A stretch of 64,000 nt of DNA, taken from an archaeon (lineage in GTDB: Archaea > Micrarchaeota > Micrarchaeia > Norongarragalinales > UBA97). Positions within the stretch are counted from its first letter, which is position 1; each line of letters opens with the position of its first letter. Under the pieces are notes generated by a model. The model had not been told where the DNA came from, ran no database searches, and saw only the letters and a program-made list of their open reading frames with translations. Of this stretch, positions 3,213 to 35,618 are shown piece after piece. The translations under genes and the position numbers were made by a program. The stretch is taken from assembly GCA_020057405.1 (NCBI GenBank), contig JAGVFW010000003.1, positions 64,001-128,000 of the forward strand, given 5' to 3'.

Positions 3213-3218
3213 CTAAAA

Positions 3219-3923: not shown

Positions 3924-3925
3924 GC

Positions 3926-9069: not shown

Positions 9070-9112
9070 CTAGGAGTAACGCAAGCGGAATTTAAGAAAT
9101 GAATGGCCAGCA

Positions 9113-10060
9113 TTAACGCGCCGCAAGAGGCTTGGCGAAATCCTTGCTTACTGAGGCCAGGTATTCCTCGATGTTCTTTCGCGTAGTCACCCACGCCCTG
9201 CCGCGCTTGAGTGCGTTGAGCCGGCCTTTCCTTGCAAGGAGGCTTAGGTATTCCTGGCTGTAGGGAGTGAGCTTTGCGGCATCTGAGAGTGAAATGAGGC
9301 CGGTTTTTTCGGATGGCTTTTCCAGGACTTCAAGGTAGAGGTCAAGCGAGCGTTCCACACTCCTTGCAACCAGTTCAACAAATGATCCGAAGGTTCCCGT
9401 GCGGGCGGCGTCAAGCGAAGAGTAGTAGCGGGGCCGATCGCCCTTTAGGATAACCGCGGGGGGAAAGCCGTGACGCATTAGAAAGAGGTTCGTCAGCAAC
9501 CGGGCCGTTCGGCCGTTGCCGTCAACGAACGGGTGGATGTCAACTAGCTTGAAGTGCGCGAGGGCCGCGAATTCAACTGATTCAAGCAAGCCGCGGGGCT
9601 CGGCCTTCAAAAACTTGACGAACTCCGTCATCAAGTGCGGCACTTTTTCGGGCGAGGGCGGAGTAAACTCCGAGCCCGTGATGCGTACGCGCTCGCGGCG
9701 GTAAAATCCGGCTCCGTGCGGGTCGATGCGGTCAAGCACGAGCGCGTGAATCTCAAGCACGTCAGCCTCGGAAATGCTCTTTTTCTTGAGCAGGCCATTG
9801 ACGAAGTCTATCGCGGCCTTATGGTTCGTCACTTCCAAGTGCTCGCGCATGCTCTTGCCCCCCACCGTAATGCCATCCCTAAGTACCAGCATCGTCTCGC
9901 GCAAAGTAAGCGAATTGCCTTCAATCGCGTTGGAATGGTAAGTCCACTCTAGCTCGAACCTCTCGCGAAGCTTTTCGAGCGACGCCGGAGGAATCGGCCT
10001 CAGCGCGTCAAGCCTCCGCCGCTTCTCCAAAATCCGCCCGGCAAGAACTGCTGGAATCAT
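9113..10060 (-). CDS. Fic family protein with C-terminal helix-turn-helix
   Basis: HPFVDGNGRTAR catalytic motif, SNAIEGN inhibitory motif, C-terminal ISLSDAAKLTPYSQEYLSLLARKGRL HTH. Confidence 0.92.
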   Translation of the reverse strand: MIPAVLAGRILEKRRRLDALRPIPPASLEKLRERFELEWTYHSNAIEGNSLTLRETMLVLRDGITVGGKSMREHLEVTNHKAAIDFVNGLLKKKSISEADVLEIHALVLDRIDPHGAGFYRRERVRITGSEFTPPSPEKVPHLMTEFVKFLKAEPRGLLESVEFAALAHFKLVDIHPFVDGNGRTARLLTNLFLMRHGFPPAVILKGDRPRYYSSLDAARTGTFGSFVELVARSVERSLDLYLEVLEKPSEKTGLISLSDAAKLTPYSQEYLSLLARKGRLNALKRGRAWVTTRKNIEEYLASVSKDFAKPLAAR

Positions 10061-14212: not shown

Positions 14213-14240
14213 AATCCCCCACCCCAGACCTATAAACAAA

Positions 14241-14732
14241 TTACTGCGATTTTACGATTGCAATTTCCTTCTCTTCCCGCTTGAGCTCGCGCAAGGCCTT
14301 CTCAAACTCGCTCACGTCGGCAAACTCGCGGTAAACGGATGCAAAGCGGATGTAGGCGACCTTATCAAGCGCCTTTAGGTGCGCCATCACCTTTTCCCCA
14401 ACCTGGGCGCTTGCGACTTCCTCGGACTCGCTGCCAAAGCGGAGTTCGGCCTCGATTTCTGCAACAGTCTGGTCAACTTGCTCCATGCTGACTGGACGCT
14501 TGTGACAGGCCTCAACCAGGCCCTTTCGCAGCTTTAGGGGTGAAAACGTCTCGCGCCGGCCGTCTTTTTTGATGACGACTAAGTCGGGCGCCTCGACACG
14601 CTCGTAAGTGGTAAAACGCTTGCCGCAAGCCTCGTTTAGGCACTCCCGTCTGCGGCGGTTTGTTACCTCTCCCTCGGCCTCTCTTTTGTCGAGAACCCGC
14701 GTTTCAACGTGCAAACAAAACGGACATTTCAT
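14241..14732 (-). CDS. nrdR: Transcriptional repressor NrdR
   Basis: MKCPFC...RRRRECLNEACGKRFTTYE zinc ribbon plus ATP cone ending AYIRFASVYREF. Confidence 0.95.
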   Translation of the reverse strand: MKCPFCLHVETRVLDKREAEGEVTNRRRRECLNEACGKRFTTYERVEAPDLVVIKKDGRRETFSPLKLRKGLVEACHKRPVSMEQVDQTVAEIEAELRFGSESEEVASAQVGEKVMAHLKALDKVAYIRFASVYREFADVSEFEKALRELKREEKEIAIVKSQ

Positions 14733-14775
14733 GTAAATTCCCCACCAACATGGCACACGCCAAACAAGTGCCCCA

Positions 14776-14823
14776 AAACCACCAGTTGTGCCATACAACT
14801 TAATGAAACACAAGCTTTTGTGG
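14776..14823. promoter_or_regulatory. Tandem NrdR-box-like sites upstream of nrdR-nrdAB
   Basis: ACACAAGCTTTTGTGG (14808-14823, about 12/16 to acaCwAtATaTwGtgt) and weaker AAACCACCAGTTGTGC (14776-14791), 32 bp apart. Confidence 0.5.
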
Positions 14824-15013
14824 TTTTGCGTCATTCTCAACGCTATTCTAGTTTAAATAAGTTTCGGCTTTCTTCAAGAATATCCCGCCGTTTTAGGGAA
14901 AAACGCGTAGTGCTTTGGTGCGTACGAGAAGTTTGGCGGTTAGGCGCCGATGCTCACTCGGACAAGGTACGGGCGCAAGCAATGGTAAAGTTTATTAATG
15001 GTATTTTTTATAA

Positions 15014-15250
15014 ATGGTAGGTGGTTTTGTGGAGAATGTGAGTGTTGACAAGTCGGGCCGCTTCGTTATTCCAAAGAAGGTGCGAGCCGAGTTTGACACC
15101 AACGTGTTTTCAGTAGAGGTGGAGAAAGACGCCATTGTCTTGCGGCCGAAGAAGGGCCTTAGGGGACTTTTTGGCACGTTTCCGGACCTCGACATGAAGG
15201 AATTCGAGAAATGGAAGAGGGAGGAAGTAGAACGTGAGAATTCTTCTTGA
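15014..15250 (+). CDS. vapB: AbrB/MazE-type antitoxin
   Basis: VSVDKSGRFVIPKKVR...IVLRP swapped-hairpin motif; overlaps the PIN gene. Confidence 0.85.
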   Translation: MVGGFVENVSVDKSGRFVIPKKVRAEFDTNVFSVEVEKDAIVLRPKKGLRGLFGTFPDLDMKEFEKWKREEVERENSS

Positions 15251-15608
15251 CGCTTGGGCCATCCTTGAACTCATCAAGGGCAGCGACAAGGGCGCAAAAG
15301 TGGAAGAAATCGTGCGCGATAGCACGCTTGCCTGCACCACTTCCCTAAATCTCTACGAAGCGAAATACAAGCTTACCGGCCGGTACGGCGAGGCCAGAAT
15401 CGACAAAATGCTCGATGAAGTCAGGGCAACAACCCAAATCCTCCCAATCACCGAAGAAGCCGCGCTTGCGGCAGCGGAAGTAAAGCTGCAGCAAAAGCAG
15501 CTAAGCGCAGTTGACTGCAACGCTTATGCTGTCGCCCGGCTCCACAAACTAGAATTCGTTACAGGCGACAAGGGTTTTACCGGACTCGAAGGCGTCGTGC
15601 TGGTCTAA
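15234..15608 (+). CDS. vapC: PIN-domain toxin
   Basis: ILLDAWA, NLYE, LSAVD and VTGDKGF acidic PIN motifs. Confidence 0.9.
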   Translation: MRILLDAWAILELIKGSDKGAKVEEIVRDSTLACTTSLNLYEAKYKLTGRYGEARIDKMLDEVRATTQILPITEEAALAAAEVKLQQKQLSAVDCNAYAVARLHKLEFVTGDKGFTGLEGVVLV

Positions 15609-15620
15609 GTGCAGGGGGAG
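15605..15620 (+). repeat. att-like core copy A (CTAAGTGCAGGGGGAG)
   Basis: Exact 16-mer containing the vapC stop codon. Confidence 0.9.
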
Positions 15621-15710
15621 CGACTCTAGCTTCTTACTAGAGTCTGAAGCACCGGGCAGTTAACCCCACAAAACGTTGTTTTTTATGCATGCCAAACAAT
15701 CGCGCCCCTC

Positions 15711-15755
15711 TAGGCGTAGTCACTTAGAACGATTAATTTAAATAGGCGTAGTCAC
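15711..15755 (+). promoter_or_regulatory. 13-bp direct repeat TAGGCGTAGTCAC flanking the TATA box of the Fic gene
   Basis: Copies at 15711-15723 and 15743-15755 around TTTAAATA. Confidence 0.55.
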
Positions 15756-15766
15756 CTATTACTACT

Positions 15767-16705
15767 ATGCACGTTGAACTCCGCAAGGCTGGCGAGGGTC
15801 GTAAGTTCTACTTGGCACACTCATACCGGAGAGGCAAGAAAATAGTCAAGCTCCGCATCTACCTTGGCGCGAACCTTTCCCCCGATGAAATAGTGGAGAA
15901 AAAACACCTTGCCGAAAGCACGCTTCGCTATCGTGTCGATGCCAGCGCTGCCATGAGCGACCCGTTTGAAACCGCGCTTTCCAAGGGTGAGCTCGAGGAG
16001 CTTAAGACGCTTGAGGCCAAGGGAGAGCTCGCCATCAAGCACTTGTCCGAGGAGGACTGGCGCAACTTTACCGAAGCGTTCACTTACGACACGAATGCCA
16101 TCGAAGGCTCCACCATACTCCGGGAAGAAGTAGGGGACATCCTCGAGCGCGGGAAGTGGCCGGACAAGCCGAAGGGAGACATATCCGAAACGTATGGCGT
16201 GGCGAAAGCCATCGAACACGTAAGAAAAACCAAGGAGCACATCTCGCTGCCGCTGCTTTTAGAATTGCACCGCATAGTTTTCCTGAACTCTAAGCCGTAC
16301 GCGGGAAAGTTCAGGGCGCGCGGAGTGGAAGTAGTCGTGGCGGACGCATACGGGAATATCCTGCATCGCGGCGCCCCTTCGACGCAAGTGCGAAAGCTCC
16401 TAAAGCGGCTGGTGGAATGGTACGGGAAGAACAAAAAGCGCTACCCGCCACTAGTCCTCGCCGCCGTAGTGCACAACCAGTTCGAGAACATCCACCCGTT
16501 TCAGGACGGCAACGGGCGGGTCGGCAGGCTCTTGCTCAATAATATCCTGCTCAAACACGGGCTGCCGCCGCTCAACATCGAACTGCGCAACAGGCACGAA
16601 TACTACGCGGCGTTGCAGGCGTACGAGCACAAGCATGACATCCGGCCCACAATCCAGCTCATGCTCAAGGAATACCGTGCTCTCAAGAAACTCCTCAAGA
16701 GGTGA
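15767..16705 (+). CDS. Fic family protein with N-terminal basic beta-strand domain
   Basis: HPFQDGNGRVGR and TNAIEGS; N-terminus RKFYLAHSYRRGKKIVKLRIYLG. Confidence 0.92.
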   Translation: MHVELRKAGEGRKFYLAHSYRRGKKIVKLRIYLGANLSPDEIVEKKHLAESTLRYRVDASAAMSDPFETALSKGELEELKTLEAKGELAIKHLSEEDWRNFTEAFTYDTNAIEGSTILREEVGDILERGKWPDKPKGDISETYGVAKAIEHVRKTKEHISLPLLLELHRIVFLNSKPYAGKFRARGVEVVVADAYGNILHRGAPSTQVRKLLKRLVEWYGKNKKRYPPLVLAAVVHNQFENIHPFQDGNGRVGRLLLNNILLKHGLPPLNIELRNRHEYYAALQAYEHKHDIRPTIQLMLKEYRALKKLLKR

Positions 16706-16731
16706 CTACACCGCACAATTTTGTAGTCACC
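16701..16731. repeat. 10-bp inverted repeat overlapping the Fic stop codon (terminator or operator)
   Basis: GGTGACTACA-N11-TGTAGTCACC, sharing GTAGTCAC with the promoter repeats. Confidence 0.55.
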
Positions 16732-16740
16732 CAAAACAGC

Positions 16741-16805
16741 GTGCTTCTAGCCCTAGTCTAAGTGCAGGGGGAGTAAGCTTAGACCTGGACTAAGTGCATA
16801 CCGAA
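16741..16805 (+). repeat. att-like site B: core at 16758-16773 with palindromic arms on both sides
   Basis: gtgcttctagccctagt-CTAAGTGCAGGGGGAG-taagcttagacctggactaagtgcataccgaa. Confidence 0.9.
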
Positions 16806-16855
16806 ACGAAAGCACGATAATGCCGAATGTGGCAAAGCCAAATAAAAAGTGTCTC
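16798..16855 (+). repeat. 58-bp direct repeat, copy 1
   Basis: ataccgaaacgaaagcac...atgccgaatgtggcaaag...aataaaaagtgtctc, repeated at 17921-17978 with few mismatches. Confidence 0.9.
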
Positions 16856-16874
16856 GAGTTTGAGCGGACTTGGG

Positions 16875-17816
16875 CTATGCGCGCTTGTCGTGCCCGTTTT
16901 CGGCTTGTTCTTCGGGTTTCAGGATCGTGTACTGCTCAAGCAATTGCTGGGAAAGAAAGCTCGCGAAAGGCTTTTGGTTTCCCTTGTCCGCTTCTTCGAT
17001 CGCGTTGTAGTATTGTTCCTTGTTTCTCGTTTCAATGATTGCCGGCGGGAATCGATTCCGCATGAGGATCCAGTTCATCAACAGCCTTGACGTGCGACCG
17101 TTGCCATCGGTGAAGGGATGGATTTGAACGAACCCATTGTGCAACCATGATGCCAATTCTACAGGATGAAGCGCGCGCTTATTTTTTTGATATTCCTTGA
17201 AGAGTTCGCCCATCAACCGCGGTACGTCCTTTGCTGCCGGAGGCTTCCAGTCCGAACCGCCGATTCCGACTTCACTGTCGCGGTAATCGCCTTGAATCCT
17301 GCACGTCGTGTTTTTCGTGATCTCAAACTGTATTTTGCACGCGAATTCCTTGTTCACCTGTCCCTTGTACGACTTGACGAATTCCCACGCATCCTTGCCG
17401 TTCAACACCTCGATGACGTCGTTCGTCTTTACGCCTTGCGGCGCGATTCCTTCGGAAAGAATGAGCGCGGTTTGCCGCAAGGTGAGCGGATTGCCTTCGA
17501 TCGCGTTCGTGTTGTACGTAAAGCGCACGAGAAAATCGCTCGGCACCATGCCCTCCGGAAAACCCTTGAACGCGACTACGGCTGAATGCAAGTCCTCGAG
17601 CCGATCTTCCGCTTCCTGCGACAGCCACTTCGCCTCGTAAGGCTTCGGCGCCTTTCGTTCAAGCTCTGAAAAATACTTTTGCAACTCATCGTGGCCTGGC
17701 ACTTTCCTCCCCAAAAACACCCGAACTTTGCTAACCTTGGTGGGAGAAAGGCGCACGCTCTTGACGAGGTAGAAATAGTCGTGCTTCCCGTGCCTCTGCT
17801 TCTCGATAAACGCCAT
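16875..17816 (-). CDS. Fic family protein with N-terminal basic beta-strand domain
   Basis: HPFTDGNGRTSR and TNAIEGN; N-terminus YFYLVKSVRLSPTKVSKVRVFLG. Confidence 0.92.
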   Translation of the reverse strand: MAFIEKQRHGKHDYFYLVKSVRLSPTKVSKVRVFLGRKVPGHDELQKYFSELERKAPKPYEAKWLSQEAEDRLEDLHSAVVAFKGFPEGMVPSDFLVRFTYNTNAIEGNPLTLRQTALILSEGIAPQGVKTNDVIEVLNGKDAWEFVKSYKGQVNKEFACKIQFEITKNTTCRIQGDYRDSEVGIGGSDWKPPAAKDVPRLMGELFKEYQKNKRALHPVELASWLHNGFVQIHPFTDGNGRTSRLLMNWILMRNRFPPAIIETRNKEQYYNAIEEADKGNQKPFASFLSQQLLEQYTILKPEEQAENGHDKRA

Positions 17817-17920
17817 AATATGGCTACATCTTCAAACTATTTAAATATTGTGGTCATAATGCCTACTTTTACGCGCCTAATATAAATTGTAGCCATACGG
17901 ATTAATCTCGAGGGGAATTT

Positions 17921-17978
17921 ATACCGAAACGAAAGCACAGAAATGCCGAATGTGGCAAAGTCGAATAAAAAGTGTCTC
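17921..17978 (+). repeat. 58-bp direct repeat, copy 2
   Basis: Near-identical to 16798-16855. Confidence 0.9.
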
Positions 17979-17987
17979 TGCTTTTGG

Positions 17988-18731
17988 TTAAATCAAGTGA
18001 AGACCCGAAGCCAAAGCAACTAACCCCGAAAGCAAGACCAAAACCAATGAAATTTTCCTAAATAATTCGTCATCGACCTTGTGGACGATTGCCATGCCTG
18101 CAAGAGAACCTACGACCATTGCCGGAAAAAGCATAATCGTATAATTAATCACCTCGTTCGTAAGCAGGCCGTTCACAAAATAGAACGGAATCGTGAGAAG
18201 AAAGAGAACTGAAAAATAGGCGACTAAATCGGCGCGAAAATCATCTTTTTTTGTCCCTTGGTTTGCTAGAAAGAGCACTACTGGCGGACCGCTCATGGTG
18301 GTGCTGCCGTTAAGGACTCCACTTGCAAAGCCCGTTATCGCAAATCCCGTCAGCTTATTCTTTATTTCACGCCTGAAGCCAACGATCAACGCCAGGGCGG
18401 TTAAGGCGACTATTGTTCCTGCGAAAATTTTTAGCGTTGCAACGTCCAAATACAAGAGAATCCAAGTTCCTATCGGAATGCCCGCCAACCCGGCAACCAG
18501 CAATGGAAGTATGCGTTTGAAGCTGACGTTACGCCAGACCTGCACTAACACGATGAAATTTATCGCAGTGTTAAGGAGGAGAACTATTGGTATTGCCGTC
18601 TTTGGAGACAAGAAAAGTACGAGGAGTGGAACCGATACAAGGGCAAAACCAAATCCCGTCAAACCATAAGTCAAAGCAGCCAGGAGGATTATTGCAAACG
18701 CAAAAACAATCGGGATAGAAACTTCAAACAA
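17988..18731 (-). CDS. TauE/SafE family (sulfite exporter-like) membrane protein
   Basis: GLTGFGFALVSVPLL and SGVLNGSTTMSGPPVVLFL; about 8 TM helices. Confidence 0.85.
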   Translation of the reverse strand: MFEVSIPIVFAFAIILLAALTYGLTGFGFALVSVPLLVLFLSPKTAIPIVLLLNTAINFIVLVQVWRNVSFKRILPLLVAGLAGIPIGTWILLYLDVATLKIFAGTIVALTALALIVGFRREIKNKLTGFAITGFASGVLNGSTTMSGPPVVLFLANQGTKKDDFRADLVAYFSVLFLLTIPFYFVNGLLTNEVINYTIMLFPAMVVGSLAGMAIVHKVDDELFRKISLVLVLLSGLVALASGLHLI

Positions 18732-18870
18732 GGTAATTCAACTCTGCCAATTTACATTATCGCTCAGTTTGTTTAAATAGTGCCTAATGCCCTTTCGTTG
18801 ATCACCTAAAAAATGCTGAATTAATTAACGGCCAAATTCTACATTTCTGTGTAACATGAGGGCGAAAAAC

Positions 18871-18924
18871 TTCGGTATACCTTTAGACCAGGTCTAAGTG
18901 CAGGGGGAGTGCTTTGAACCCACG
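18871..18924 (+). repeat. att-like site C: perfect palindrome TTAGACCAGGTCTAA, core at 18894-18909, then a tRNA T-arm-like remnant
   Basis: Minus strand reads cgtgggttcaaagcactccccctgcac. Confidence 0.88.
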
Positions 18925-18932
18925 GAATAGGG

Positions 18933-21704
18933 CTACCCGCGGGGGAAGGGGAAGTCGGCCATGAGGCCTACGGGAGTGGTGTTGAAGTTGGTGAAGCCGG
19001 TTGCCAGGACTGCCCCGTTTTGGACGAAGTAGTCGCCTGCGGCGGGATTCCTGAACTGGGGGTCGGCGGTGACTGAATTGACGTCAAAGCCGTATTGCGA
19101 CTGCCATTGGGCGAGAGGGATTTTTGGCGTTCCTACTTGAATCGTATACCTCCCATCAGGCCGGTAAAACGAGTTGTAATCCGAAGCGCTTACTTTGTCG
19201 GATTGCCAGTCTGCAAACTTGAACATGGTGGGATCGAGCGCGTTCGAGGTGGAGGCATAGAAAATATTGCGAGTAATGTTCAGGTGGTGGTTGGGCATGC
19301 CCAGATACGCTTGGAAGAAAGCAAGCTCTCGCGGCTCGTCGGTTGCTACAATGTTGTTGGTGAGCGTGTTGTAATCGCCTTTGATTAAGAAAGTATAGGG
19401 ATTGGTGCGGATGTTGTAAACGAGGTTGTTGCTGACCATATTGTATCCGGACCCATCGTCAAGGTACATGCCAACGGCGAATGGATTGTTGACTTGAGTG
19501 GTCGCGGTAATGTCGTGAATGACATTGTTGGTGATGAGATTGTCCTTGCCGGAACCCCACAAATAGATTCCGCCGCCGTCATGCGTGTCCCGCATCACGT
19601 CCGAAACGTCGTTAAAGGCGATGGTGCCGTTTCTGGCGTAGACGTAATCGCGGTAGTTTTCCTGAGTTGCGTCCGGAATGAAAAGTTTAGTGTAGTTGAG
19701 AGTAAAGCCGAGGTAGAGGATTCCAGCGTAATTTCCGCGGTGGATTTTGTTGAAGGACACGTTGGTCGAGCTGATGCGCGCGAGAAGCATTCCCGCGGCC
19801 CTCGAATAGCGCCGGCCGAAGTCGTAAAAGCGGTTGTTGACAATGCGGTTAAAGCCACTCACGTCGCCATTGCCCGGATAAGGGCCGCCCAATTTGATTG
19901 CATCAGCGCCAAGCTCGTTTAGGTAATTGCCGTAAATGTCAAGGCCAGTAACGTAGAAGCCGCCCGTAATTCCATGAGTCAGTTGCTTGAATTCATTGAA
20001 GCGCACGCGGATGTTGTCGGCGTAGGCCACATGCAATCCCGTGGGCGTGCTTAGCGGCCCGTTGGAATTGGCTGTCTTAAAGCCGTTGCCCATTTCGAGA
20101 GTCAGGCCGCGCAGTTCGATGTTCGACGTTTTTACCGAGGGCGAAGAGCCGGAGACCTGGATTATCCGCTCGATTGTGGGCGCCAGGATTTCCTGCGAGT
20201 CAATCGGCGCGTTTCGCGGCCAGTAGTAAGTCAGGCCGGTCGTCTCGTCGTAGAAAAATTCTCCGGGAGAGTCAAGAAAGTCGAGTGAATTGATGAGGGC
20301 AAACCGGTTGTTGAGTCTTATGACGTAGCTCGTGTTGGCTGACAGGTTGATTGTGCGGGTGGAGAAGTTGACGTAAGTGATGGGAGTTATGTCAACGGCC
20401 CAGTCGTAAACGTAAGAGCCGCTTCCGCCGGGGAAGATGTAGGCCTTGGCACTGGAGTAGGAAAACGTGTCGGGAAGCGCGCCGGACGGGTAGACGAAGC
20501 TCGTGAAGTTGTTGTCGCCATAGCCGGCAACTTTCAGGTAACCTGAATTGGGCGTGCGCGCGGGCACCGCCTCGACGCCATTTTCGTAAAGCGAGTAAAT
20601 ATTGGGGCCTATGTTTGCAACGTAGATGTTGCCTGAATAAAGCGTCCAGCCGGTCGCGGCCTTGGATGCAATCAACCTTGGCTTCTCGCCGTAGTAGTTG
20701 CGCCAAATAACGCGATAGCCGTTCTTTCCGGAATCCGGGGGCTGGAGCAAAAGCCCGCTCGTAAGGTAGTACTTCCCACCTCGAAGAAAGACAACCGCAT
20801 TAGAGGTCATTCCGGAAGTGATGTTGGTGCGGATTGTAGTCTGGGCTTTTGAGAGTGTTAGGAATGGTGCGGTTAGTGTGCCGGGGTTGTTGTCATTGCC
20901 GTTTGTTGCAACGTAGAAGAAGACTGTCGAGTCGCAGGCGTCGCCCACGCCATTCTCGTCCGCATCCCATTGGTTGGCGTTCGCCACTGACGGACAATTG
21001 TCAACTGAATCGAGCACGCCGTCGTCGTCTGAGTCGGGCGGGGGCGTCGGAGTCGGCGTGGGAGTGGGAACGCAGGAGGGGCACGGTGTTGGCGTGGGTG
21101 TAGGCGAGCCGCTTGGCGTGGGGCTCGGCGTTGGGCTGCTGTTTGGAGTTGGCGTTGGGCTTCCTTGCGGGCCCGGAGTTGGGGTCGGCGATGATGTTGG
21201 CCGGGGGGTGACTATAGGGAGAGTAGAGTTCACGCAGTGCTCGGCAGGCGCGATTGATATTCCTTCGCAGCTGGCGACACACACGTTAAAGTAAGTCCTG
21301 CCGTCAGAGCCGCAGACCGGCGTGTAAACGCTTGGGCAAGCGCATGGGTCGGGCGTAGGTGTTGCCGTCGGCACCGGAATCGGCTGGACTGAAGGCATTG
21401 GCGTGGGCGTTGGGCTGGGCGTCACGATTGGCGTTGAAAATAAGTCGAGTCCCCGCAAGCCGAACAGGTTTTTGCCTAGCTCGCGAATTTTGGTGACGAT
21501 TTTCATCTGCGCATCCACCATCTGCTGCGCAACAGAAACAATAGGATGATACTCCGATTGCGTAGGCGGGGAAGAAACGATGAAGAAAGAACCTGCGAGT
21601 GTAATGTAAGCCAAAACCGCGATTAGAAAAACGATTGTAAAGGCCGACGCCGCACTTTCGCCTAACCTACCGCGCAGCGCCTCCAGCTCTTCCCAAAAAT
21701 CCAC
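18933..21704 (-). CDS. Paralogous surface protein (TM, PT, Kazal, TSP3, beta-helix)
   Basis: N-terminal part is nearly collinear with the 6127-9069 product; LDSPGEFFYD, DGGGIY, GMYLDDGS. Confidence 0.8.
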   Translation of the reverse strand: MDFWEELEALRGRLGESAASAFTIVFLIAVLAYITLAGSFFIVSSPPTQSEYHPIVSVAQQMVDAQMKIVTKIRELGKNLFGLRGLDLFSTPIVTPSPTPTPMPSVQPIPVPTATPTPDPCACPSVYTPVCGSDGRTYFNVCVASCEGISIAPAEHCVNSTLPIVTPRPTSSPTPTPGPQGSPTPTPNSSPTPSPTPSGSPTPTPTPCPSCVPTPTPTPTPPPDSDDDGVLDSVDNCPSVANANQWDADENGVGDACDSTVFFYVATNGNDNNPGTLTAPFLTLSKAQTTIRTNITSGMTSNAVVFLRGGKYYLTSGLLLQPPDSGKNGYRVIWRNYYGEKPRLIASKAATGWTLYSGNIYVANIGPNIYSLYENGVEAVPARTPNSGYLKVAGYGDNNFTSFVYPSGALPDTFSYSSAKAYIFPGGSGSYVYDWAVDITPITYVNFSTRTINLSANTSYVIRLNNRFALINSLDFLDSPGEFFYDETTGLTYYWPRNAPIDSQEILAPTIERIIQVSGSSPSVKTSNIELRGLTLEMGNGFKTANSNGPLSTPTGLHVAYADNIRVRFNEFKQLTHGITGGFYVTGLDIYGNYLNELGADAIKLGGPYPGNGDVSGFNRIVNNRFYDFGRRYSRAAGMLLARISSTNVSFNKIHRGNYAGILYLGFTLNYTKLFIPDATQENYRDYVYARNGTIAFNDVSDVMRDTHDGGGIYLWGSGKDNLITNNVIHDITATTQVNNPFAVGMYLDDGSGYNMVSNNLVYNIRTNPYTFLIKGDYNTLTNNIVATDEPRELAFFQAYLGMPNHHLNITRNIFYASTSNALDPTMFKFADWQSDKVSASDYNSFYRPDGRYTIQVGTPKIPLAQWQSQYGFDVNSVTADPQFRNPAAGDYFVQNGAVLATGFTNFNTTPVGLMADFPFPRG

Positions 21705-21797
21705 GCTAGGCTAACGCCAAGGGAATTTAAGAACAGAACGGCTCTCTGCTGTCGAAACACTAATGGAAAAGAAAAAAAGCGCATAGCTAACGGTGGA

Positions 21798-21867
21798 ACT
21801 CGAAGGCATCGTGCTGGTCTAAGTGCAGGGGGAGTACGCTGAGACGTCGTCTAGAAGCGGACTTTGC
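21798..21867 (+). repeat. att-like site D (core 21819-21834), preceded by a copy of the vapC 3' end
   Basis: 21798-21834 matches 15584-15620 at 36/37; right arm tgagacgtcgtctagaagcggactttgc. Confidence 0.9.
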
Positions 21868-21915
21868 GAGACACAATTGATTCGTTGATTAATATAGTCC
21901 TAAAATCAATTATTC

Positions 21916-22707
21916 TTGACAGAGGGAATCAACTTGATTTTGCGTCCAAGAACTTTAAAGTCAATGGCTGAACAACTAGCCCAATTGCCCCCTCAAAGAC
22001 GGAAAGTAGTGGTTTTAGTCGGTAGACACCTAAATGAAGGGTCAGTAAACTTAGCAAACAGGTGTCATGAATCTTGGGGAAAAAAAGGCGCGGTCACCAT
22101 CCAACTTCCAGTGGACTGGACTCCAGAAGGTTTTTGGCATAGTGCGATGCAACGAAATCTCACTGCTGAAGAAGTAGAGAATGAAGCGAAAGCTATTCCT
22201 TCAGATGAGGCTATTTTAGACTTTCTCTTCAAAAGAGGATTTCGAATTCCGGTTCTAAATATCCACGGCGCTGGACACGAGGCGCGCGATATAACTAATT
22301 CTTCTGCGGAAACTGCCGAGAATAGGGAAAAAATCGAGACTGAACGGACTCCGACAACAAGCATAACCACAGGTAATAAAACGAGAATTTTCGAGCACAA
22401 ACTCATTCGCCATCACTATGGTAATATTGAACATCCTAACGAAATTTTGATAGAAATATATTATGGCGGATCTAAAAGAAATACTAAATCTCTAGAATAT
22501 GCGGTAGGTTTGGATCCGCATTCGAGACTCGCAGTTAACAATTCTCCGAGTTATATTGCAAAAAGATACTTGCGCGGCATCGTTATCAACCGCGGTTCAC
22601 TTGAGCGCCTTCACAAGGACGTGACTCCGAAAATAGAAGAACTGATTGAACACCTATCAAAAACCGGTCTAAAAGCAAGGCTTGGAAAAAGAGACTATAT
22701 TCGCTGA
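21916..22707 (+). CDS. Hypothetical protein, possible M14-like zinc site (start may be ATG 21964)
   Basis: Long AT-rich ORF filling the D-E cassette; VVVLVGRHLNE ... VLNIHG. Confidence 0.65.
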   Translation: MTEGINLILRPRTLKSMAEQLAQLPPQRRKVVVLVGRHLNEGSVNLANRCHESWGKKGAVTIQLPVDWTPEGFWHSAMQRNLTAEEVENEAKAIPSDEAILDFLFKRGFRIPVLNIHGAGHEARDITNSSAETAENREKIETERTPTTSITTGNKTRIFEHKLIRHHYGNIEHPNEILIEIYYGGSKRNTKSLEYAVGLDPHSRLAVNNSPSYIAKRYLRGIVINRGSLERLHKDVTPKIEELIEHLSKTGLKARLGKRDYIR

Positions 22708-22742
22708 AATTGTGTCTCTGGATATGAAAACAAGTCGTTGGC

Positions 22743-22813
22743 GACAAGGTCTGCTTCTAGACCTGGACTAAGTGCAGGGGGAGTGCGCTTAGACGCGGTC
22801 TAGAAGTGGACTT
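22743..22813 (+). repeat. att-like site E (core 22768-22783), the most symmetric copy
   Basis: gcttctagacctggactaagtgca-GGGGGAG-tgcgcttagacgcggtctagaagt: 24-bp imperfect inverted arms around a 7-bp spacer. Confidence 0.92.
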
Positions 22814-22816
22814 TTC

Positions 22817-22834
22817 GAGACACAATTGTGTCTC
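22817..22834. repeat. Perfect 18-bp palindrome GAGACACAATTGTGTCTC
   Basis: Seen directly; its halves recur at 21868 and 22708. Confidence 0.85.
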
Positions 22835-22868
22835 AATCTATAAGTAGTCTTGTTTCACAAGTGATAGT

Positions 22869-23204
22869 ATGCGAATATCCTTTCGGGCTTTTGAACACCG
22901 TTATCCTGGCACCTATGGGACGAGCATGCTTTCTGCCAACGAACTGAGAGAAGCGAAATCGCTGAGGACATTCATAACTCGCAAAAAGTACGAAGATGCT
23001 ACTCGAGGAATTCCAAAAGGAAATCCAAAAATCGTTCGCGTCTTGGGTGAGATTTTTATCATCGACGGCCATCATCGAAGTAGGTTTGCCGTAGATCGCG
23101 GGGAAGGAATCACGGTAGAGCATTTCGAAACTGACTCTAAAGCACTCAAATTTATTTTGGATAAAAAGGCAAAAGCCAAGATTGGAGGAGTGGAAATTCG
23201 TTGA
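22869..23204 (+). CDS. Small ParB/Srx N-terminal-like protein
   Basis: PKIVRV...IFIIDGHHRSRFA motif. Confidence 0.65.
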   Translation: MRISFRAFEHRYPGTYGTSMLSANELREAKSLRTFITRKKYEDATRGIPKGNPKIVRVLGEIFIIDGHHRSRFAVDRGEGITVEHFETDSKALKFILDKKAKAKIGGVEIR

Positions 23205-23221
23205 TGAACGAAAAACGAGGC

Positions 23222-23284
23222 AGTACACTTCTAGATGTTGTCTAAGTGCAGGGGGAGCGATTTGAACTCTTGAACGCCGTTGAG
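23222..23284 (+). repeat. att-like site F (core 23242-23257), followed by a degenerate tRNA-Leu 3' half on the minus strand
   Basis: Minus strand reads ctcaacggcgttcaagagttcaaatcgctccccctgca. Confidence 0.88.
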
Positions 23285-23285
23285 T

Positions 23286-24206
23286 TTAGCGCTTTTCGCC
23301 CTGCCAAAGCGAGACGAATTCCTTGTAGTTTCGGGCAACCATCTCGACTGCTTCCTCGCGCGAGTGCTTGCCGTCCTTCAGGCCCGCCAGGGCGTCCCAG
23401 AAGATGGTGCGGCCGACTGCAAAACCGATGATACCGGGAATTTTGGCGCCAACGGAAAGCCATTCCTTGACTTTTTCCTTGCTTTCGCCGCGGCCGAGCG
23501 TGATGACGCCGGCTTTCCTGCCGTTTGCCTGCGCTTGGGCGACTATTGCACGCGCGTCCTTTGGCGAATCAACGCCCTCCATCTTCCAGACGTCGGGCTC
23601 GACGCCTGCGGCCTGGATGTCGGCCATTGCGCGGACCATGAGCTTGGGGCGAAGTTGGGAATCGTAAGCGGCCTTGTCCCCATTGAGTTTCGCCAACTGG
23701 TCGGCGGTCGCGGGGACGAGGAGCTCGAAGAGGTAACCCCGATTGGTGCGCTCGAGGTATTCGCCGAGGGTCTTGAGGCGGGCGAGCTGGCGCTTGTTCA
23801 TCACGGCATCAGCTTCGTGGTTGTAGCGCACGAGCACTTTTGCGAATGCGGGTGCAAAGTCTTCTAGGTGGTGGCCGAATGCCCCGCCGTACTCGAAGTC
23901 AAACTCGTCCTGACCGCTTTTCTCAACGGGCATGGCGAAGTTTACGCCATTTGCTCTCGCGTCGACCGCGATTGCCGCGCCGAACTGCTCGTCAACGAGA
24001 ATGCCTGCGATGGGCTTTGGCACGCCATCGGCAATCGCCTTTGAGAAGCCCTCGTAGACGACTTTCTTGAAGTCGCAAATGCGGGAAGTCTCTGCCACGG
24101 TAGGCGGGCGTCCCTTGATGCCGAATAGCTTCTCCATGAACGACCCGCGGTGGTCAAACGCGAGAATGAGCAGCTGCCGCTTAGTAAAGTCCTTCTCCAA
24201 TGCCAT
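23286..24206 (-). CDS. DUF2090 / IolC C-terminal-like, LacD-type class I aldolase fold
   Basis: LAFDHRGS, GILVDEQFG, PVEKSGQ, KVLVRY, LFELL, PDVWKMEG, GFAVGRTIF. Confidence 0.85.
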   Translation of the reverse strand: MALEKDFTKRQLLILAFDHRGSFMEKLFGIKGRPPTVAETSRICDFKKVVYEGFSKAIADGVPKPIAGILVDEQFGAAIAVDARANGVNFAMPVEKSGQDEFDFEYGGAFGHHLEDFAPAFAKVLVRYNHEADAVMNKRQLARLKTLGEYLERTNRGYLFELLVPATADQLAKLNGDKAAYDSQLRPKLMVRAMADIQAAGVEPDVWKMEGVDSPKDARAIVAQAQANGRKAGVITLGRGESKEKVKEWLSVGAKIPGIIGFAVGRTIFWDALAGLKDGKHSREEAVEMVARNYKEFVSLWQGEKR

Positions 24207-24238
24207 CTAAACCATCCCCCAAAATTGAATTCAAATTA

Positions 24239-25195
24239 TTAATGCGAGTGCCTGTGAATTGCCTCGACGTAGCGAACTGTGCCGCTTTTTGCGCGCATGA
24301 CGACGGAATGCGTGCGGATTACACCATGCGGCTCAAACGCTACGCCCTTAAGAAAAGTGCCGTCGGTGACACCAGTTGCCACAAACATTGTTTCTTTCCC
24401 GCCGGCCAAGTCCTCGAGCTTGAGAATCTTGTCGGGGTCGGCCAAGCCGTAGTCGATTGCGCGCTTGCGTTCCTCTGGATTGCGGAAGGCAAGCCTGCCC
24501 TCCATGTAACCGCCCAAGCACTTCATTGCCGCCGCGGCAAGCACGCCCTCTGGTGCCCCGCCGATGCCAAAGAGGGCGTCGACGTTTGAGCCCGGCATTG
24601 CCGAGGCGATTGCACCGGAGACGTCGCCGTCGCCGATTAGTTTTATGCGCGCACCGGCTGCTCGCACGTCGTCTATGAGTTTTTTGTGCCTCTCGCGGTC
24701 GAGGATGACGATTGAAAGCTCGTTAACTTCCTTCCCCGTCTTCTTGGCAATGCTTTTCAGGTTCTCGCCAACGGACCTTTCAAGCGAGACGGCATTGCCG
24801 ACGATGGGGCCGACGGCGATTTTCTCCATGTAAGTGTCGGGAGCATTAAGCAGCTTGCCGTGGGGTGCTGCTGCAAGAACGGCTAGTGCGTTTTCCCCGC
24901 CCCTTGCGGTGACGCCGGTGCCCTCAAGGGGGTCAACAGCGATGTCGATTTTCATGCCCTTGCCCGTGCCGACTTTCTCGCCGATGAAAAGCATTGGCGC
25001 CTCGTCCCGCTCGCCCTCGCCGATGACTACGGTACCCGCAATGTCGATGAAGTTGAGCCGCTCGCGCATCGCGGTGACTGCTGCCTGGTCTGCCGAGTTG
25101 CTGTCGCCCTTGCCTGCCCACTTTGATGCGGAGATGGCTGCGGCTTCGGTAACGCGAACGAATTCTAGAGCGAGATTCTTATCCATTTCCACCAA
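24239..25195 (-). CDS. glpX: Class II fructose-1,6-bisphosphatase
   Basis: VTEAAA, VVIGEGERDEAPML, AVDPLEGT, DGDV, GIGGAPEGVL, ATGVTDG. Confidence 0.96.
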   Translation of the reverse strand: MVEMDKNLALEFVRVTEAAAISASKWAGKGDSNSADQAAVTAMRERLNFIDIAGTVVIGEGERDEAPMLFIGEKVGTGKGMKIDIAVDPLEGTGVTARGGENALAVLAAAPHGKLLNAPDTYMEKIAVGPIVGNAVSLERSVGENLKSIAKKTGKEVNELSIVILDRERHKKLIDDVRAAGARIKLIGDGDVSGAIASAMPGSNVDALFGIGGAPEGVLAAAAMKCLGGYMEGRLAFRNPEERKRAIDYGLADPDKILKLEDLAGGKETMFVATGVTDGTFLKGVAFEPHGVIRTHSVVMRAKSGTVRYVEAIHRHSH

Positions 25196-34237: not shown

Positions 34238-34249
34238 GAGATGTAAAAA

Positions 34250-35476: not shown

Positions 35477-35492
35477 ACGAAGTGAAGAGCAA

Positions 35493-35618
35493 ATGGACCG
35501 GAAGAATGCGGGCTATGTTATCCTCCTAGTCGGCCTCGTGGCCGCGGTTGGAGTTCCGGACTACAGCATCATTGGGGCGGCTTTGATGGTCGCGGGCCTG
35601 CTTTTGGCTTTTAGTTAG
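35493..35618 (+). CDS. 41-aa two-helix membrane peptide (below the ORF-track cutoff)
   Basis: MDRKNAGYVILLVGLVAAVGVPDYSIIGAALMVAGLLLAFS*; fills the intergenic gap. Confidence 0.55.
   Translation: MDRKNAGYVILLVGLVAAVGVPDYSIIGAALMVAGLLLAFS

Follow-up and report, generated by a model that had tools for sequence, protein, structure and literature searches.

The window, a stretch of 64,000 nucleotides from a Micrarchaeota archaeon, contains a locus where one short sequence recurs between genes of different kinds. This raises the question of what sort of unit lies between the repeats, and of how such units might have come to stand in tandem. As part of the explanation favoured below, we consider it likely that the locus comprises mobile gene cassettes that are non-autonomous and stand in two short arrays, A-B-C and D-E-F, where the letters denote the junctions (Table 1).

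The junction core is the tip of a tRNA-Leu gene

There are six exact occurrences of CTAAGTGCAGGGGGAG in the window (at 15605, 16758, 18894, 21819, 22768 and 23242), all on the + strand, compared with a chance expectation of 0.52, and this count was reached in 0 of 100 shuffles. The core of the junctions, TGCAGGGGGAG, has 11 nucleotides and, by sequence comparison, is in reverse complement the 3′ end of a tRNA-Leu gene, spanning three nucleotides of the T-stem, the 3′ strand of the acceptor stem and the discriminator base. In the source genome (G000, 90.6% complete), ARAGORN places a tRNA-Leu(TAG) gene at C11:147075-147159, of which the core is 147149-147159, and three cassettes come after it. 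Similarly, the end of contig C16 carries a tRNA that contains an intron, has the same tip and adjoins a cassette right end. That the core equals the end of tRNA-Leu had gone unnoticed in the original prediction.

No tRNA is predicted by ARAGORN in the window, whose arrays are not located at a tRNA gene. Both arrays end in sequences that look like parts of one. Site C is followed on its right by the segment tgcTTTGAACCCACGGAA, which resembles the T-loop and T-stem in tRNA-Leu 3′ ends, and a portion of this segment, tgctttgaaccca, also terminates a metagenome array (L229). Together with the site C core the segment may constitute a pseudo attachment site of approximately 30 nucleotides. To the right of site F, cgaTTTGAACTCTTGAACGCC resembles the T-arm of the tRNA-Leu(TAG) on C11 and is a candidate for a second such site. 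G001, a genome from the same genus, lacks this stretch at the corresponding position.

At sites B, D and E, direct reading of the sequence shows that ctaag and ct(t/g)ag are 15 bp apart, and the last 4 of these 15 bp vary among junctions. The invariant repeat across all junctions is 11 nucleotides, with no identical duplication of 14 to 15 nucleotides, and core positions 8-10 can differ between junction cores of one array.

Table 1. Coordinates of the arrays and flanking genes in the window
Feature	Coordinates	Strand	Remarks
vapB-like	15014-15250	+	Pfam MazE_antitoxin, E 1.1e-4, below curated cut-off
vapC/PIN	15234-15608	+	Pfam PIN, E 1.6e-15; toxin-antitoxin pair with vapB-like, together 15014..15608
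Site A core	15610..15620	+	TGCAGGGGGAG; reverse complement of tRNA-Leu 3′ end
Cassette A-B	15621..16762	+	Fic gene between type-2 left end and type-1 right end
A-B left end, type-2	15621-15652		hairpin gACTCTAG-N7-CTAGAGTc, then tgaagc
A-B Fic gene	15767-16705		Pfam Fic, E 4.1e-20
A-B right end, type-1	16737-16762
Site B core	16763..16773	+
Cassette B-C	16774..18898	+	'TACCGAA' end family; Pfam Fic and TauE
B-C left end	16774-16855
B-C Fic gene	16875-17816	-	Pfam
B-C second, partial left-end copy	17921-17978		internal repeat, 58 nt, 91%
B-C TauE permease	17988-18731	-	Pfam
B-C right end	18871-18898
Site C core	18899..18909	+
tRNA-Leu T-loop/T-stem look-alike	18910..18930	+	tgcTTTGAACCCACGGAA; right of site C
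Segment C-D	18933..21823	-	secreted-protein gene and copy of vapC 3′ boundary; Pfam
C-D gene	18933-21704	-	923-aa secreted beta-helix/Kazal/TSP3 protein; Pfam
C-D copy of vapC 3′ boundary	21798-21834		37 nt
Site D core	21824..21834	+
Cassette D-E	21835..22772	+	left-end module, ORF, right-end module
D-E left-end module, type-1	21835-21897		holds GTCTAGAAGCGGAC and GAGACACAATTG
D-E ORF	21916-22707		263 aa; without known family
D-E right-end module	22707-22772
Site E core	22773..22783	+	centre of the sole long palindrome within the array itself
Cassette E-F	22784..23246	+	left-end module, ORF, right end
E-F left-end module	22784-22848		carries palindrome GAGACACAATTGTGTCTC
E-F ORF	22869-23204		111 aa
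E-F right end	23222-23246
Site F core	23247..23257	+
tRNA-Leu T-arm look-alike	23258..23285	+	cgaTTTGAACTCTTGAACGCC; right of site F
DUF2090 gene	23286-24206	-	stop abuts the site F look-alike

Anatomy of the cassettes

On its left side the first array is bounded by the last 26 nucleotides of vapC together with the core, and the repeat search finds this boundary copied at site D (37 nucleotides, 97% identical). Cassette A-B is a hybrid in which a type-2 left end is combined with a type-1 right end. It shares 71% nucleotide identity with a metagenome Fic cassette from the gene through the right end, and the left ends of the two are not alike. Cassette B-C belongs to an end family found again in two other cassettes (L212 and L056). 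It contains a second, partial copy of its left end and probably arose when two cassettes fused at a junction that has decayed. Segment C-D does not match the pattern and differs in kind from these cassettes.

The ORF of cassette D-E has no Pfam match. The right-end module of this cassette is seen again, at approximately 90-92% identity and with other cargo, on contigs C1 and C16 of the source genome, such that a module of 88-119 nucleotides is common to three cassettes with unrelated cargo. The left-end module of E-F can be aligned with that of an integrase-bearing element (G021C23_INT) and includes a TATA-like ctataagta some 25 nucleotides upstream of the ATG, which suggests that the module may contain a promoter.

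Distribution beyond the window

The exact 11-mer is present in 61 of 68 genomes of the order. There are 18 exact cores in the source genome, of which 17 are associated with a tRNA or a cassette, and one- or two-gene cassettes bounded by the same core are found directly behind tRNA-Leu elsewhere in this genome and in relatives from the order. Arrays of one to three cassettes behind tRNA-Leu occur in G055, G021, G033, G005, G007, G066, G023, G063 and G042, as well as on metagenome contigs. In two genomes of the same genus, the core and right end are 99% identical over 107 nucleotides (the tRNA being 94% identical) and the cargo differs. Because end modules are shared around unrelated cargo, the units are cassettes and not a repeated gene. 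Cargo includes Fic proteins, toxin-antitoxin systems, GNAT proteins and methyltransferases, with none in common between any two cassettes of the source genome. Units without cargo also exist, as pairs of cores 21, 2 and 60 nucleotides apart. The ORFs run along the core in 18 of 51 cases and against it in 33. No pair of sequences before and after insertion is available for the arrays of the window because G001 carries unrelated genes at their position. Neither a circle nor an empty site nor any recent transposition came to light in the analysis.

Inverted ends and palindromes

The original prediction held that each cassette is bounded by inverted ends that vary together. Every sequence fact quoted in its support was verified, including the six junctions, the 15-bp spacing and the arms of site E. 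The repeat search yields inverted end pairs of 28 nucleotides for B-C (24/28, 86%), 18 for D-E (16/18, 89%) and 29 for E-F (79%). When the two 45-nucleotide ends of each cassette were compared with 2000 shuffles, the inversion of these three was in each case reached in 0 of 2000. The generality implied by the word 'each' does not hold, however, given that the ends of the hybrid A-B are only weakly inverted (26/2000) and inverted ends are absent from C-D, where the score of 8 lies beneath the null mean of 10.5 and was reached in 1995 of 2000 shuffles.

Covariation of the ends is likewise borne out at one level and not at another. Between end families it is evident, as types agree in 39 of 42 cassettes and are mixed in the other 3, but it does not extend to single cassettes. 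In a larger sample, with comparisons kept within one source, the score is 17.1 for the two ends of one cassette (n=42) and 16.1 for other pairings (n=54), and inside an array the ends of a cassette resemble each other no more than they resemble the ends of its neighbours. For type-1 cassettes of the source genome, 60 of 720 pairings are as good as the true one, a proportion that becomes 0.44 of 120 pairings when B-C is omitted.

Site E is the sole palindrome around GGGGGAG in the array, with 31-nucleotide arms (77%) flanking a 7-nucleotide gap, and it folds at -20.4 kcal/mol (z -6.3) with GGGGGAG as the loop. None of the actual junctions A, B, C, D and F folds better than shuffled sequence (z >= 0). 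A further proposal was that the two ends of a cassette make one palindrome in an excised circle. This agrees with modelled circle junctions for B-C, D-E and E-F (-18.6, -18.7 and -22.7 kcal/mol, compared with -7.5 to -10.2 for shuffled arms), but modelled type-2 circle junctions fold no better than shuffles, and thus the palindrome is not general. That GGGGGAG serves as the recombination overlap is plausible, although cores of one array can vary at positions 8-10, which lie inside the proposed overlap.

A tyrosine integrase family linked to the core

There are 63 matches to PF00589 among 61 relatives, and at least 8 of them lie approximately 500 bp from an exact core. Seven core-adjacent integrases share 43-78% mutual identity, are approximately 400 amino acids long and combine the PF00589 domain with a C-terminal zinc ribbon. 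Their nearest solved chains are archaeal XerA proteins (4a8e, E 1.4e-15; 5hxy, E 1.8e-11), with IntI4 a weaker match. We also sampled 71 loci of the family from species-representative genomes with at least 200 bp upstream, allowing at most one mismatch in the core. Within 400 bp of the gene start, 18 have a core on the tRNA side and 9 more have one on the far side. No such core is found within 400 bp at 41 of the 71 loci, some of which adjoin other tRNAs.

The integrase elements also resemble the cassettes at their ends. Three of them (G021:C23, L151 and L153) have a left-end module as in cassettes D-E and E-F, and right ends carry a GTGCT-YWGAGAC motif at a cassette-like distance from the core. 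The source genome is devoid of this tRNA-Leu clade in tblastn searches with seven members as queries. Its single integrase is 31-35% identical to the clade and resides in a separate 5.3-kb element at tRNA-Phe. Searches of this genome also gave 0 matches for Cas1, Y1 transposases and serine recombinases.

Proposed mechanism and its rivals

These observations are probably best explained if the units are cassettes of a family of tRNA-Leu-targeting integrative elements in Micrarchaeota-type archaea, with a split palindromic attP and an integrase acting in trans. In its free form a cassette would exist as a small circle, and the attachment site of this circle, composed of right-end module, core and left-end module, would form an imperfect palindrome of approximately 60 to 200 bp. 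A tyrosine integrase would recombine the core of the circle with the same 11 nucleotides at the tip of tRNA-Leu or at a look-alike of a tRNA end. Integration would split the palindrome, so that the integrated cassette has inverted-repeat ends and a regenerated core, which could then receive the next cassette. The enzyme may be the conserved XerA-like integrase described above, encoded by larger relatives elsewhere. As the source genome lacks this integrase clade, its cassettes would either be moved in trans by visiting elements or be stranded now.

Perhaps, instead, full integrase elements integrated serially at tRNA-Leu ends and were then reduced by deletion, such that the small form was never mobile. 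Tandem integration followed by decay is known, according to the available text of the respective sources, for tycheposons (10.1101/2020.12.28.424599) and archaeal elements (PMC8371274). Decay would also suit the missing cognate integrase, the fused or decayed junctions such as that within B-C, the 3 hybrids among 42 cassettes and the tRNA fragments that adjoin arrays. Nevertheless, intact modules flank both sides of many one- or two-gene cargos across genomes, and separate deletions would rarely be expected to spare both ends of ~60-120 nucleotides and to leave 0.5-1.2 kb. In addition, independent cassettes (B-C, L212 and L056) have left and right ends of one and the same family. We therefore regard this history as unlikely. 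Host recombination that uses the end modules as portable homology, and swaps cargo without a site-specific enzyme, is quite improbable as the only process. It would fit the 90-99% identity of 60-120-nucleotide modules around unrelated cargo and the one-sided likeness of the window Fic cassette to its metagenome relative, but would not explain the exact tRNA tip at every junction, the arrays that start at tRNA-Leu, or the presence of an integrase gene beside this core in elements with matching ends. Such recombination could operate in addition to site-specific recombination.

That the arrays are true integrons or CALINs, with junction palindromes acting as attC sites for an IntI-type integrase that shuffles cassettes, is very improbable. 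The arrays are indeed built of small cassettes without a recombinase, and their cargo is typical of integrons. However, the palindrome is divided between the two ends of a cassette rather than whole at one, five of the six junctions do not fold, there is neither an adjoining integrase nor an attI, the anchor is the tip of tRNA-Leu, ORFs run in both directions, and the linked integrases match XerA ahead of IntI4. The attC boxes of integrons read GTTRRRY/RYYYAAC, unlike the GTCTAAG of these junctions. Archaea are reported to have integrons and CALINs in the available text of one study (PMC9668308). Least credible of all is that a Cas1-type casposase inserted units with terminal inverted repeats (TIRs) at the 3′ end of tRNA-Leu and duplicated ~15 bp of target. 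The 15-bp spacing at B, D and E would agree with this, as would the casposons of Methanosarcina, for which the consulted portion of the source describes a tRNA-Leu target, TIRs, 14-bp duplications and possible tandems (PMC4779613). Yet the last 4 of the 15 bp vary, type-2 ends begin without ctaag or cttag, and Cas1 (PF01867) is found in 6 of 68 genomes of the order, with none near an array among the contigs examined. The preference for a tyrosine recombinase over a casposase voiced in the original prediction is thus upheld, because an integrase family adjoins the same core and shares the end modules, Cas1 is rare and the repeat is 11 nucleotides.

Comparison with known systems

The arrangement has parallels in tandem accretion and in CIME-like and integron-like arrays. 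In the islands of Prochlorococcus, as far as the available description goes, tycheposons with tyrosine recombinases lie next to island tRNAs, neighbours have nothing but a partial tRNA copy between them, and remnants and partial tRNAs are scattered throughout (10.1101/2020.12.28.424599). The tRNA-anchored integration, tandem elements and tRNA fragments are therefore alike, but in that description tycheposons encode their own integrase or count as remnants, and we found in it no account of integrase-less single-gene cassettes with intact, inverted ends. The ssrA islands of Dehalococcoides also use the 3′ end of a small RNA gene as their integration site and are mobilised site-specifically, but are, in the portion of the source available, bacterial, multi-gene and targeted to tmRNA (PMC3146451). 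The casposons of Methanosarcina, in the part of their description considered here, share the tRNA-Leu 3′ region as target, the terminal inverted repeats and the tandem stacking. They differ from the present arrays, which have no Cas1 and no element of PolB size, are linked to a tyrosine integrase instead, and show an invariant 11-nucleotide repeat rather than a 14-nucleotide duplication (PMC4779613).

For CALINs, movement by an integrase encoded elsewhere has been proposed in the available text (PMC9668308). Integrons and CALINs resemble our arrays, as far as that text extends, in having small recombinase-less cassettes with an imperfect palindromic site each and similar cargo. They are unlike them in that the window palindrome is cut mid-way with half at either cassette end, attC boxes, attI and IntI are lacking, docking is at a tRNA tip, genes of window-type units lie in both orientations, and a promoter-like module occupies the left end.

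The linked integrase is nearest to XerA among solved proteins, and site E, with 11-nucleotide inverted arms and a 7-nucleotide spacer, recalls the 11+6+11 layout of dif. IMEX, which are Xer-exploiting elements, likewise stack in tandem without a recombinase of their own. In contrast to XerA, the linked enzyme is encoded by elements, has an extra zinc ribbon and is not a universal host gene (any PF00589 match occurs in only 32 of 61 relatives), and its target is a tRNA tip instead of dif.

Site-specific accretion with cis-mobilizable elements (CIMEs), as in the ICESt1/ICESt3 family, and integrative mobilizable elements in general also involve units that lack an integrase, are bounded by att sites and follow one another at the 3′ end of a gene. 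These units are thought to be mobilised by an integrase that a related autonomous element encodes. Our cassettes share the integrase-less tandem units at a gene 3′ end and the proposed movement by a relative's integrase. Elements of that group occur in bacteria, descend from conjugative elements, usually extend over several kb and are few at any one site, whereas window-type units are archaeal, mostly 0.5-1.2 kb and equipped with one or two genes, a split palindromic attP, a promoter-like left-end module, and an anchor that is the last 11 nucleotides of tRNA-Leu.

The tRNA-Leu core at cassette junctions

There are six copies of the 16-mer CTAAGTGCAGGGGGAG in the window, compared with 0.52 expected by chance, and none of 100 shuffled sequences attains this number. 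The only part that is common to all junctions, those of the window (sites A to F) and those of other loci, is the 11-nucleotide core TGCAGGGGGAG. This core corresponds to the last 11 nucleotides of tRNA-Leu(TAG) on the opposite strand, namely the last three nucleotides of the T-stem, the acceptor 3' strand CCCCTGC and the discriminator A. The direct repeats at the junctions are therefore a tRNA gene 3' end, as in elements that target tRNA genes.

There are 18 exact cores in G000, the genome that contains the window, and 17 of these are found in a tRNA or cassette context, leaving one on contig C2 without recognisable ends. On contig C11, three cassettes of 0.6-0.8 kb are located behind tRNA-Leu(TAG) with a core at each boundary. 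At the end of contig C16, a cassette right end adjoins an intron-bearing tRNA with an identical tip, which ARAGORN labels Val(cac) and whose 3' part corresponds to that of tRNA-Leu(CAA) in relatives. The exact core is present in 61 of the 68 genomes of the order, mostly just in tRNA-Leu genes, and its copy number is highest in G000. Arrays of one to three cassettes are found behind tRNA-Leu genes in the relatives G055, G021, G033, G005, G007, G066, G023, G063 and G042, and also on metagenome contigs (e.g. L172, L183, L188, L212 and L239) among 80 fetched metagenome loci, many of which match only by chance and lie in unrelated DNA. The genomes are without exception metagenome bins, in which arrays interrupt the assembly, as where C16 ends inside one.

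One cassette seemed to occur in two families (L042 from G005:C1 and L027 from G048:C53). This candidate was rejected, as 1803 nucleotides comprising tRNA-Leu, cassette and flanks are 100% identical, which is most simply one contig in two bins rather than transfer. Because the identity extends over the flanks, the two were treated as a single contig.

Two further observations concern the tRNA genes themselves. At loci L013, L025, L026 and L028, the sequence 'ggattttcacc...' comes after the tRNA-Leu tip and the 5' end of the tRNA is more than 150 nucleotides away, which suggests an intron in or near the T-loop, beside the integrase target. At L011, a decayed second tRNA-Leu-like sequence is located about 440 nucleotides behind an intact tRNA-Leu(CAG), just beyond one cassette.

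Coordinates of features in the window and in other loci (Gnnn, genomes of the same order; Lnnn, fetched loci; genome:contig)
Feature	Sequence	Position	Strand	Remarks
16-mer CTAAGTGCAGGGGGAG	window	15605, 16758, 18894, 21819, 22768, 23242	+	six copies
Partial copy of B-C left end	window	16798-16855 vs 17921-17978		58 nt, 91%
Predicted secreted protein	window	18933-21704	-	923 aa
tRNA-Leu(TAG)	G000:C11	147075-147159		ARAGORN
Core in tRNA-Leu(TAG)	G000:C11	147149-147159
Core without recognisable ends	G000:C2	37374
Cargo-less unit	G000:C16	52719-52761		core pair 21 nt apart; inner palindrome only
Cargo-less unit	L053	2291-2314		core pair 2 nt apart
Cargo-less unit	L084			core pair 60 nt apart; left and right end only
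Decayed tRNA-Leu-like sequence	L011 (G021:C20)	1949-2030
tRNA-Phe element	G000:C17 (L009)	33575-38934		outside the window
Integrase-ATPase fusion	L040 (G020:C1)	6216-9314
Integrases about 500 bp from a core	G007:C69, G007:C68, G020:C1 (two), G021:C23, G029:C25, G008:C27, G057:C6

Cassette ends and cargo

There are two main types of cassette ends, type 1 and type 2, and these labels are our own, assigned after the data had been viewed. Type 1 has the left end ...GTCTAGAAGYGGAC... and the right end ...GTCTGCTTCTAGAC-N5-CTAAG, and type 2 has a left hairpin ACTCTAG-N7/8-CTAGAGTCTGAAG and the right end AGACTCTAG.... The type-1 left-end module also holds the palindrome GAGACACAATTGTGTCTC and a TATA-like ctataagta some 25 nucleotides before the first ATG, which may represent the operator and promoter for a leaderless transcript.

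End modules are found with different cargo. The D-E right-end module has copies on contigs C1 and C16 of G000 that are about 90-92% identical over 88-119 nucleotides with different cargo, and the D-E left-end module likewise recurs on other contigs of this genome. Similarly, two same-genus genomes share a core and right end at 99% over 107 nucleotides and a tRNA at 94%, with unrelated cargo. A metagenome Fic cassette matches the Fic cassette A-B at 71% identity from the Fic gene through the right end, and the left-end type differs, implying that ends can be swapped.

The cassettes carry only cargo and no recombination genes. Fic is encoded by four cassettes, toxin-antitoxin cargo includes PIN/MazE-like and ParE-type genes, and others encode GNAT proteins, methyltransferases, a nucleotidyltransferase, an ArsP permease with a thioredoxin, and TauE, while many cargo ORFs have no Pfam family. 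Among unvalidated ORFs of at least 50 amino acids, 18 of 51 are oriented with the core and 33 against it. Cargo-less units consisting of closely spaced core pairs were also seen at three loci. In addition, cassette B-C contains a second partial copy of its left end preceded by a core-like tcgaggggaat. B-C probably represents the fusion of two cassettes whose junction has decayed.

Pairing of the two ends

The original prediction described the two ends of each cassette as co-varying inverted repeats, and all of the end pairs that it quoted were recovered by a repeat search of the window. Inverted pairs span 28 nucleotides at 86% for B-C, 18 at 89% for D-E and 29 at 79% for E-F, and site E itself has 31-nucleotide arms (77%) around a 7-nucleotide gap. 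When the 45-nucleotide left end is scored against the reverse complement of the 45-nucleotide right end, the scores of B-C (36), D-E (26) and E-F (25) are each attained in none of 2000 shuffles. The score of 17 for A-B is attained in 26 of 2000. Segment C-D, with a score of 8 that is attained in 1995 of 2000, has no inverted ends. Thus, inverted-repeat ends are well supported for three cassettes and weakly for A-B, and they are not a property of C-D.

Co-variation was assessed with intervals of 150-4000 nucleotides between consecutive same-strand cores. There are 35 such intervals, and 31 cassettes are left after removal of one duplicate contig, two chance one-mismatch matches and one tRNA-like remnant. 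Own pairs score 15.9 versus 12.8 for all other pairings (0 of 10000 permutations), although this and the following p-values overstate the case because the sequences are related rather than independent. Compared with other pairs from the same source, however, own pairs are not favoured (15.9, n=31, versus 16.3, n=48), and in 14 adjacent pairs the arms across the junction score 16.7 versus 17.0 and 19.0 for the own pairs. The signal is present in type 1 (n=10, 18.0 versus 13.1, p 0.0006) and not in type 2 (n=13, 16.4 versus 16.3, p 0.48). For the six type-1 cassettes of G000, 60 of 720 pairings equal the true one, and without B-C the fraction is 0.44 of 120.

An enlarged set of 42 cassettes was obtained by adding 11 from nine metagenome loci, picked by eye for recognisable ends and with duplicates omitted. 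Own pairs score 17.0 versus 13.6 in type 1 (n=23, 6 of 20000 permutations), 18.3 versus 17.3 in type 2 (n=16, 3690 of 20000), and 17.1 (n=42) versus 16.1 (n=54) for other pairs from the same source. The end types, as we labelled them, agree in 39 of the 42 cassettes, and the 'TACCGAA' family of B-C occurs again in L212 and L056, where the left ends match the right ends. This recurrence and the family-level scores imply that both ends of a cassette come from the same family or sub-family. Therefore, in the comparison that had been named in advance as able to refute it, co-variation holds at the level of families and sub-families, but it fails cassette by cassette within arrays.

Folding of junctions

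Site E is the only long hairpin in the array, with a predicted energy of -20.4 kcal/mol (z -6.3, 0 of 200 shuffles) and the loop GGGGGAG. None of the sites A, B, C, D and F folds better than shuffles (z 0.06 to 1.0). An expectation that excised circle junctions fold as hairpins was borne out for modelled B-C (-18.6 kcal/mol), D-E (-18.7) and E-F (-22.7), compared with -7.5 to -10.2 kcal/mol for shuffled arms, but type-2 circles fold no better than shuffles. Across all 31 cassettes the folding effect is small (own pairs -12.1, non-own pairs -10.9, real junctions -12.05). As modelled for the window, the palindrome belongs to the two ends of one cassette and not to a junction. A palindrome formed from joined ends would be expected if crossover took place at the centre of a palindromic attP, and is the opposite of the arrangement in an integron attC.

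Site of strand exchange

One possibility is that strands are exchanged at GGGGGAG, acting as the overlap of a recombinase. Site E has 11-nucleotide arms (9/11 by our count) around these seven nucleotides and in this respect resembles dif, for which PMC8371274 gives an 11+6+11 layout. However, the inner 9-nucleotide arms match at only 3-6 of 9 positions (our count) at the other five sites of the window, and type-2 right ends have no matching arm. The linked enzyme is XerA-like and nearly all left ends begin T-R-x with AG at positions 8-9 after the core, which also favours this overlap, but cores can differ at positions 8-10 within one array or element. For example, the junction cores of G023 read GGGAGAG at the tRNA, then GGGGAAG, then GGGGGAG, and variants are also found at L050, L084 and contig C11 of G000. 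Among cores in cassette contexts, positions 1-6 are invariant apart from position 2 of a single far junction, and the core variants mirror differences between tRNA-Leu isoacceptors. As judged from these sequences, either exchange occurs within the last seven nucleotides of the tRNA, or heterology would be tolerated in the right part of the overlap.

Arrays located away from tRNA genes

There are no tRNA genes in the window according to ARAGORN. Arrays are found directly at a tRNA gene on contigs C11 and C16 and in relatives, whereas those of the window end at tRNA-Leu 3' look-alikes of about 30 nucleotides. To the right of sites C and F are some 20-28 nucleotides that resemble the tRNA-Leu T-loop and T-stem (TTTGAACCC..), and 'tgctttgaaccca' from the look-alike also terminates metagenome array L229. 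The left boundary of site A is the 3' end of vapC, and that of site D is a 37-nucleotide copy of it (97% identity). We read the left of A with the right of C, and the left of D with the right of F, as two putative copies of a pseudo attachment site that would hold two cassettes each.

In the same-genus genome G001, the interval between nrdR and DUF2090 contains no core and has unrelated genes, which from their sequence encode an ArsR-like regulator and thioredoxin-fold proteins, and no empty site was found by synteny. Metagenome arrays ending in '...gcggtttagcgc' were considered as occupying the DUF2090 locus too, and this was rejected because tblastx reveals no DUF2090 there. An Rfam scan of window positions 14000-25000 yields no matches at E up to 1. 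Between the two arrays of the window is a gene for a predicted secreted protein with Kazal, thrombospondin type 3 and right-handed beta-helix domains.

A candidate integrase

There is no PF00589 match in the window, and therefore its arrays lack the integrase of their own that tRNA-targeting elements carry. The single match in G000 is a 382-amino-acid integrase within a 5.3-kb element in the 3' end of tRNA-Phe. This resident enzyme is unlikely to act on the cassettes, because it is part of a separate element, the one in tRNA-Phe, whose 21-nucleotide direct repeat is not the core.

At least 8 of the 63 PF00589 matches in relatives are found about 500 bp from an exact core, and in two of these elements a further core, at distances of 11.9 kb and 6.5 kb, marks the other boundary. 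Seven extracted integrases have a mutual identity of 43-78%, compared with 31-35% to the G000 integrase, and carry PF00589 together with a zinc ribbon at the C-terminus. Conserved Arg, His-x-x-Arg and Tyr positions align among them, and their nearest solved chains are archaeal XerA (4a8e, E 1.4e-15; 5hxy, E 1.8e-11), with XerD and IntI4 (E 4.1e-8) ranking below. In the 11.9-kb element with two cores, a tRNA-Leu-clade integrase is fused in a 1032-amino-acid frame to a TraG/HerA-type P-loop ATPase. A tblastn search with the seven integrases revealed no tRNA-Leu-clade integrase in G000.

A scan of species-representative genomes recovered 262 relatives, and 78 loci were kept, almost all labelled Candidatus Micrarchaeota or Micrarchaeia. 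Of the 71 with at least 200 bp upstream, 18 have a tRNA-side core (up to one mismatch) within 400 bp of the gene start, nine more have a far-side core followed by a left end, and in another three a type-2-like hairpin follows a variant core with two mismatches. The other 41 have none of these cores, and some are located beside other tRNAs. In G021:C23, L151 and L153 the integrase gene is directly behind a type-1 left-end module, which aligns with those of D-E and E-F over a stretch that includes the palindrome and the TATA-like box. A GTGCT-YWGAGAC motif in the right ends of integrase-bearing elements has the same spacing to the core as it has in cassettes.

A search of IMG/VR with the integrase alignment gave one distant match (24% identity), and thus the elements are not known viruses. 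Only 32 of 61 genomes of the order, which are incomplete, have any PF00589 match, and so no XerA-type chromosome resolvase is evidently shared by the whole group.

Proposed function and comparison with known systems

We tentatively propose, as a reading that we consider rather less probable than its failure, that Micrarchaeota-type archaea run a tRNA-anchored analogue of integrons, with shuffling in trans, a split dif-like core, tolerant exchange and seeds of about 30 nucleotides. Cassettes of one gene with its own promoter might be shuffled in trans by the XerA-like zinc-ribbon integrase of visiting elements. This enzyme would act through a dif-like core of about 29 bp (11-nucleotide arms and a 7-nucleotide spacer) whose halves are located at the two ends of every cassette. 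Mismatches in the right-hand part of this core might be tolerated during strand exchange, as they are in systems that exchange a single strand, and tRNA-Leu 3' fragments of about 30 nucleotides might suffice to seed arrays off tRNA genes, as in the window.

DPANN-type archaea have tiny genomes, and we know of no described route by which they trade single genes. If true, the stacking of small cassettes, ready for expression, at docking sites on tRNA-Leu tips would offer them such exchange for Fic, toxin-antitoxin pairs, acetyltransferases, methyltransferases and transporters, and would represent an integron-like solution that had arisen a second time and independently. The two half-sites and the family of the candidate enzyme have been delimited well enough for in vitro work.

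The array format is integron-like. In integrons, attC is a complete palindrome at the 3' end of the cassette with R'' and R' boxes. An integron or CALIN was nevertheless rejected, because sites A, B, C, D and F do not fold, the palindrome arises only from joined ends and the junctions read GTCTAAG. Neither IntI nor attI was identified, as the window has no PF00589 match and, among solved chains, the linked integrases match XerA best. Casposons at tRNA-Leu, as described in PMC4779613, have this target in common with the cassettes but not the enzyme. Cas1 is found in 6 of the 68 genomes of the order and not near arrays, and an identical target-site duplication of about 14-15 bp flanking TIRs is absent, in that 11 nucleotides are common to all junctions and the next four read cgac, taag, tgct, tacg, tgcg and cgat. 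The casposon was rejected on these grounds and, like the Y1/HUH and serine-recombinase readings, because Cas1, Y1 transposase and serine recombinase each have no matches in G000. A search of open-access papers and preprints found neither the cassettes nor the integrase family described for Micrarchaeota or DPANN archaea.

CIMEs arise when units without an integrase accrete in tandem at an att site, and the logic of the cassettes is the same. They are CIME-like in that they are bounded by the att sites of an autonomous family and lack its recombination genes, since their end modules align with those of integrase-bearing elements and they hold cargo alone. A similar logic of accretion applies to tycheposon islands with partial tRNA copies, as described in 10.1101/2020.12.28.424599.
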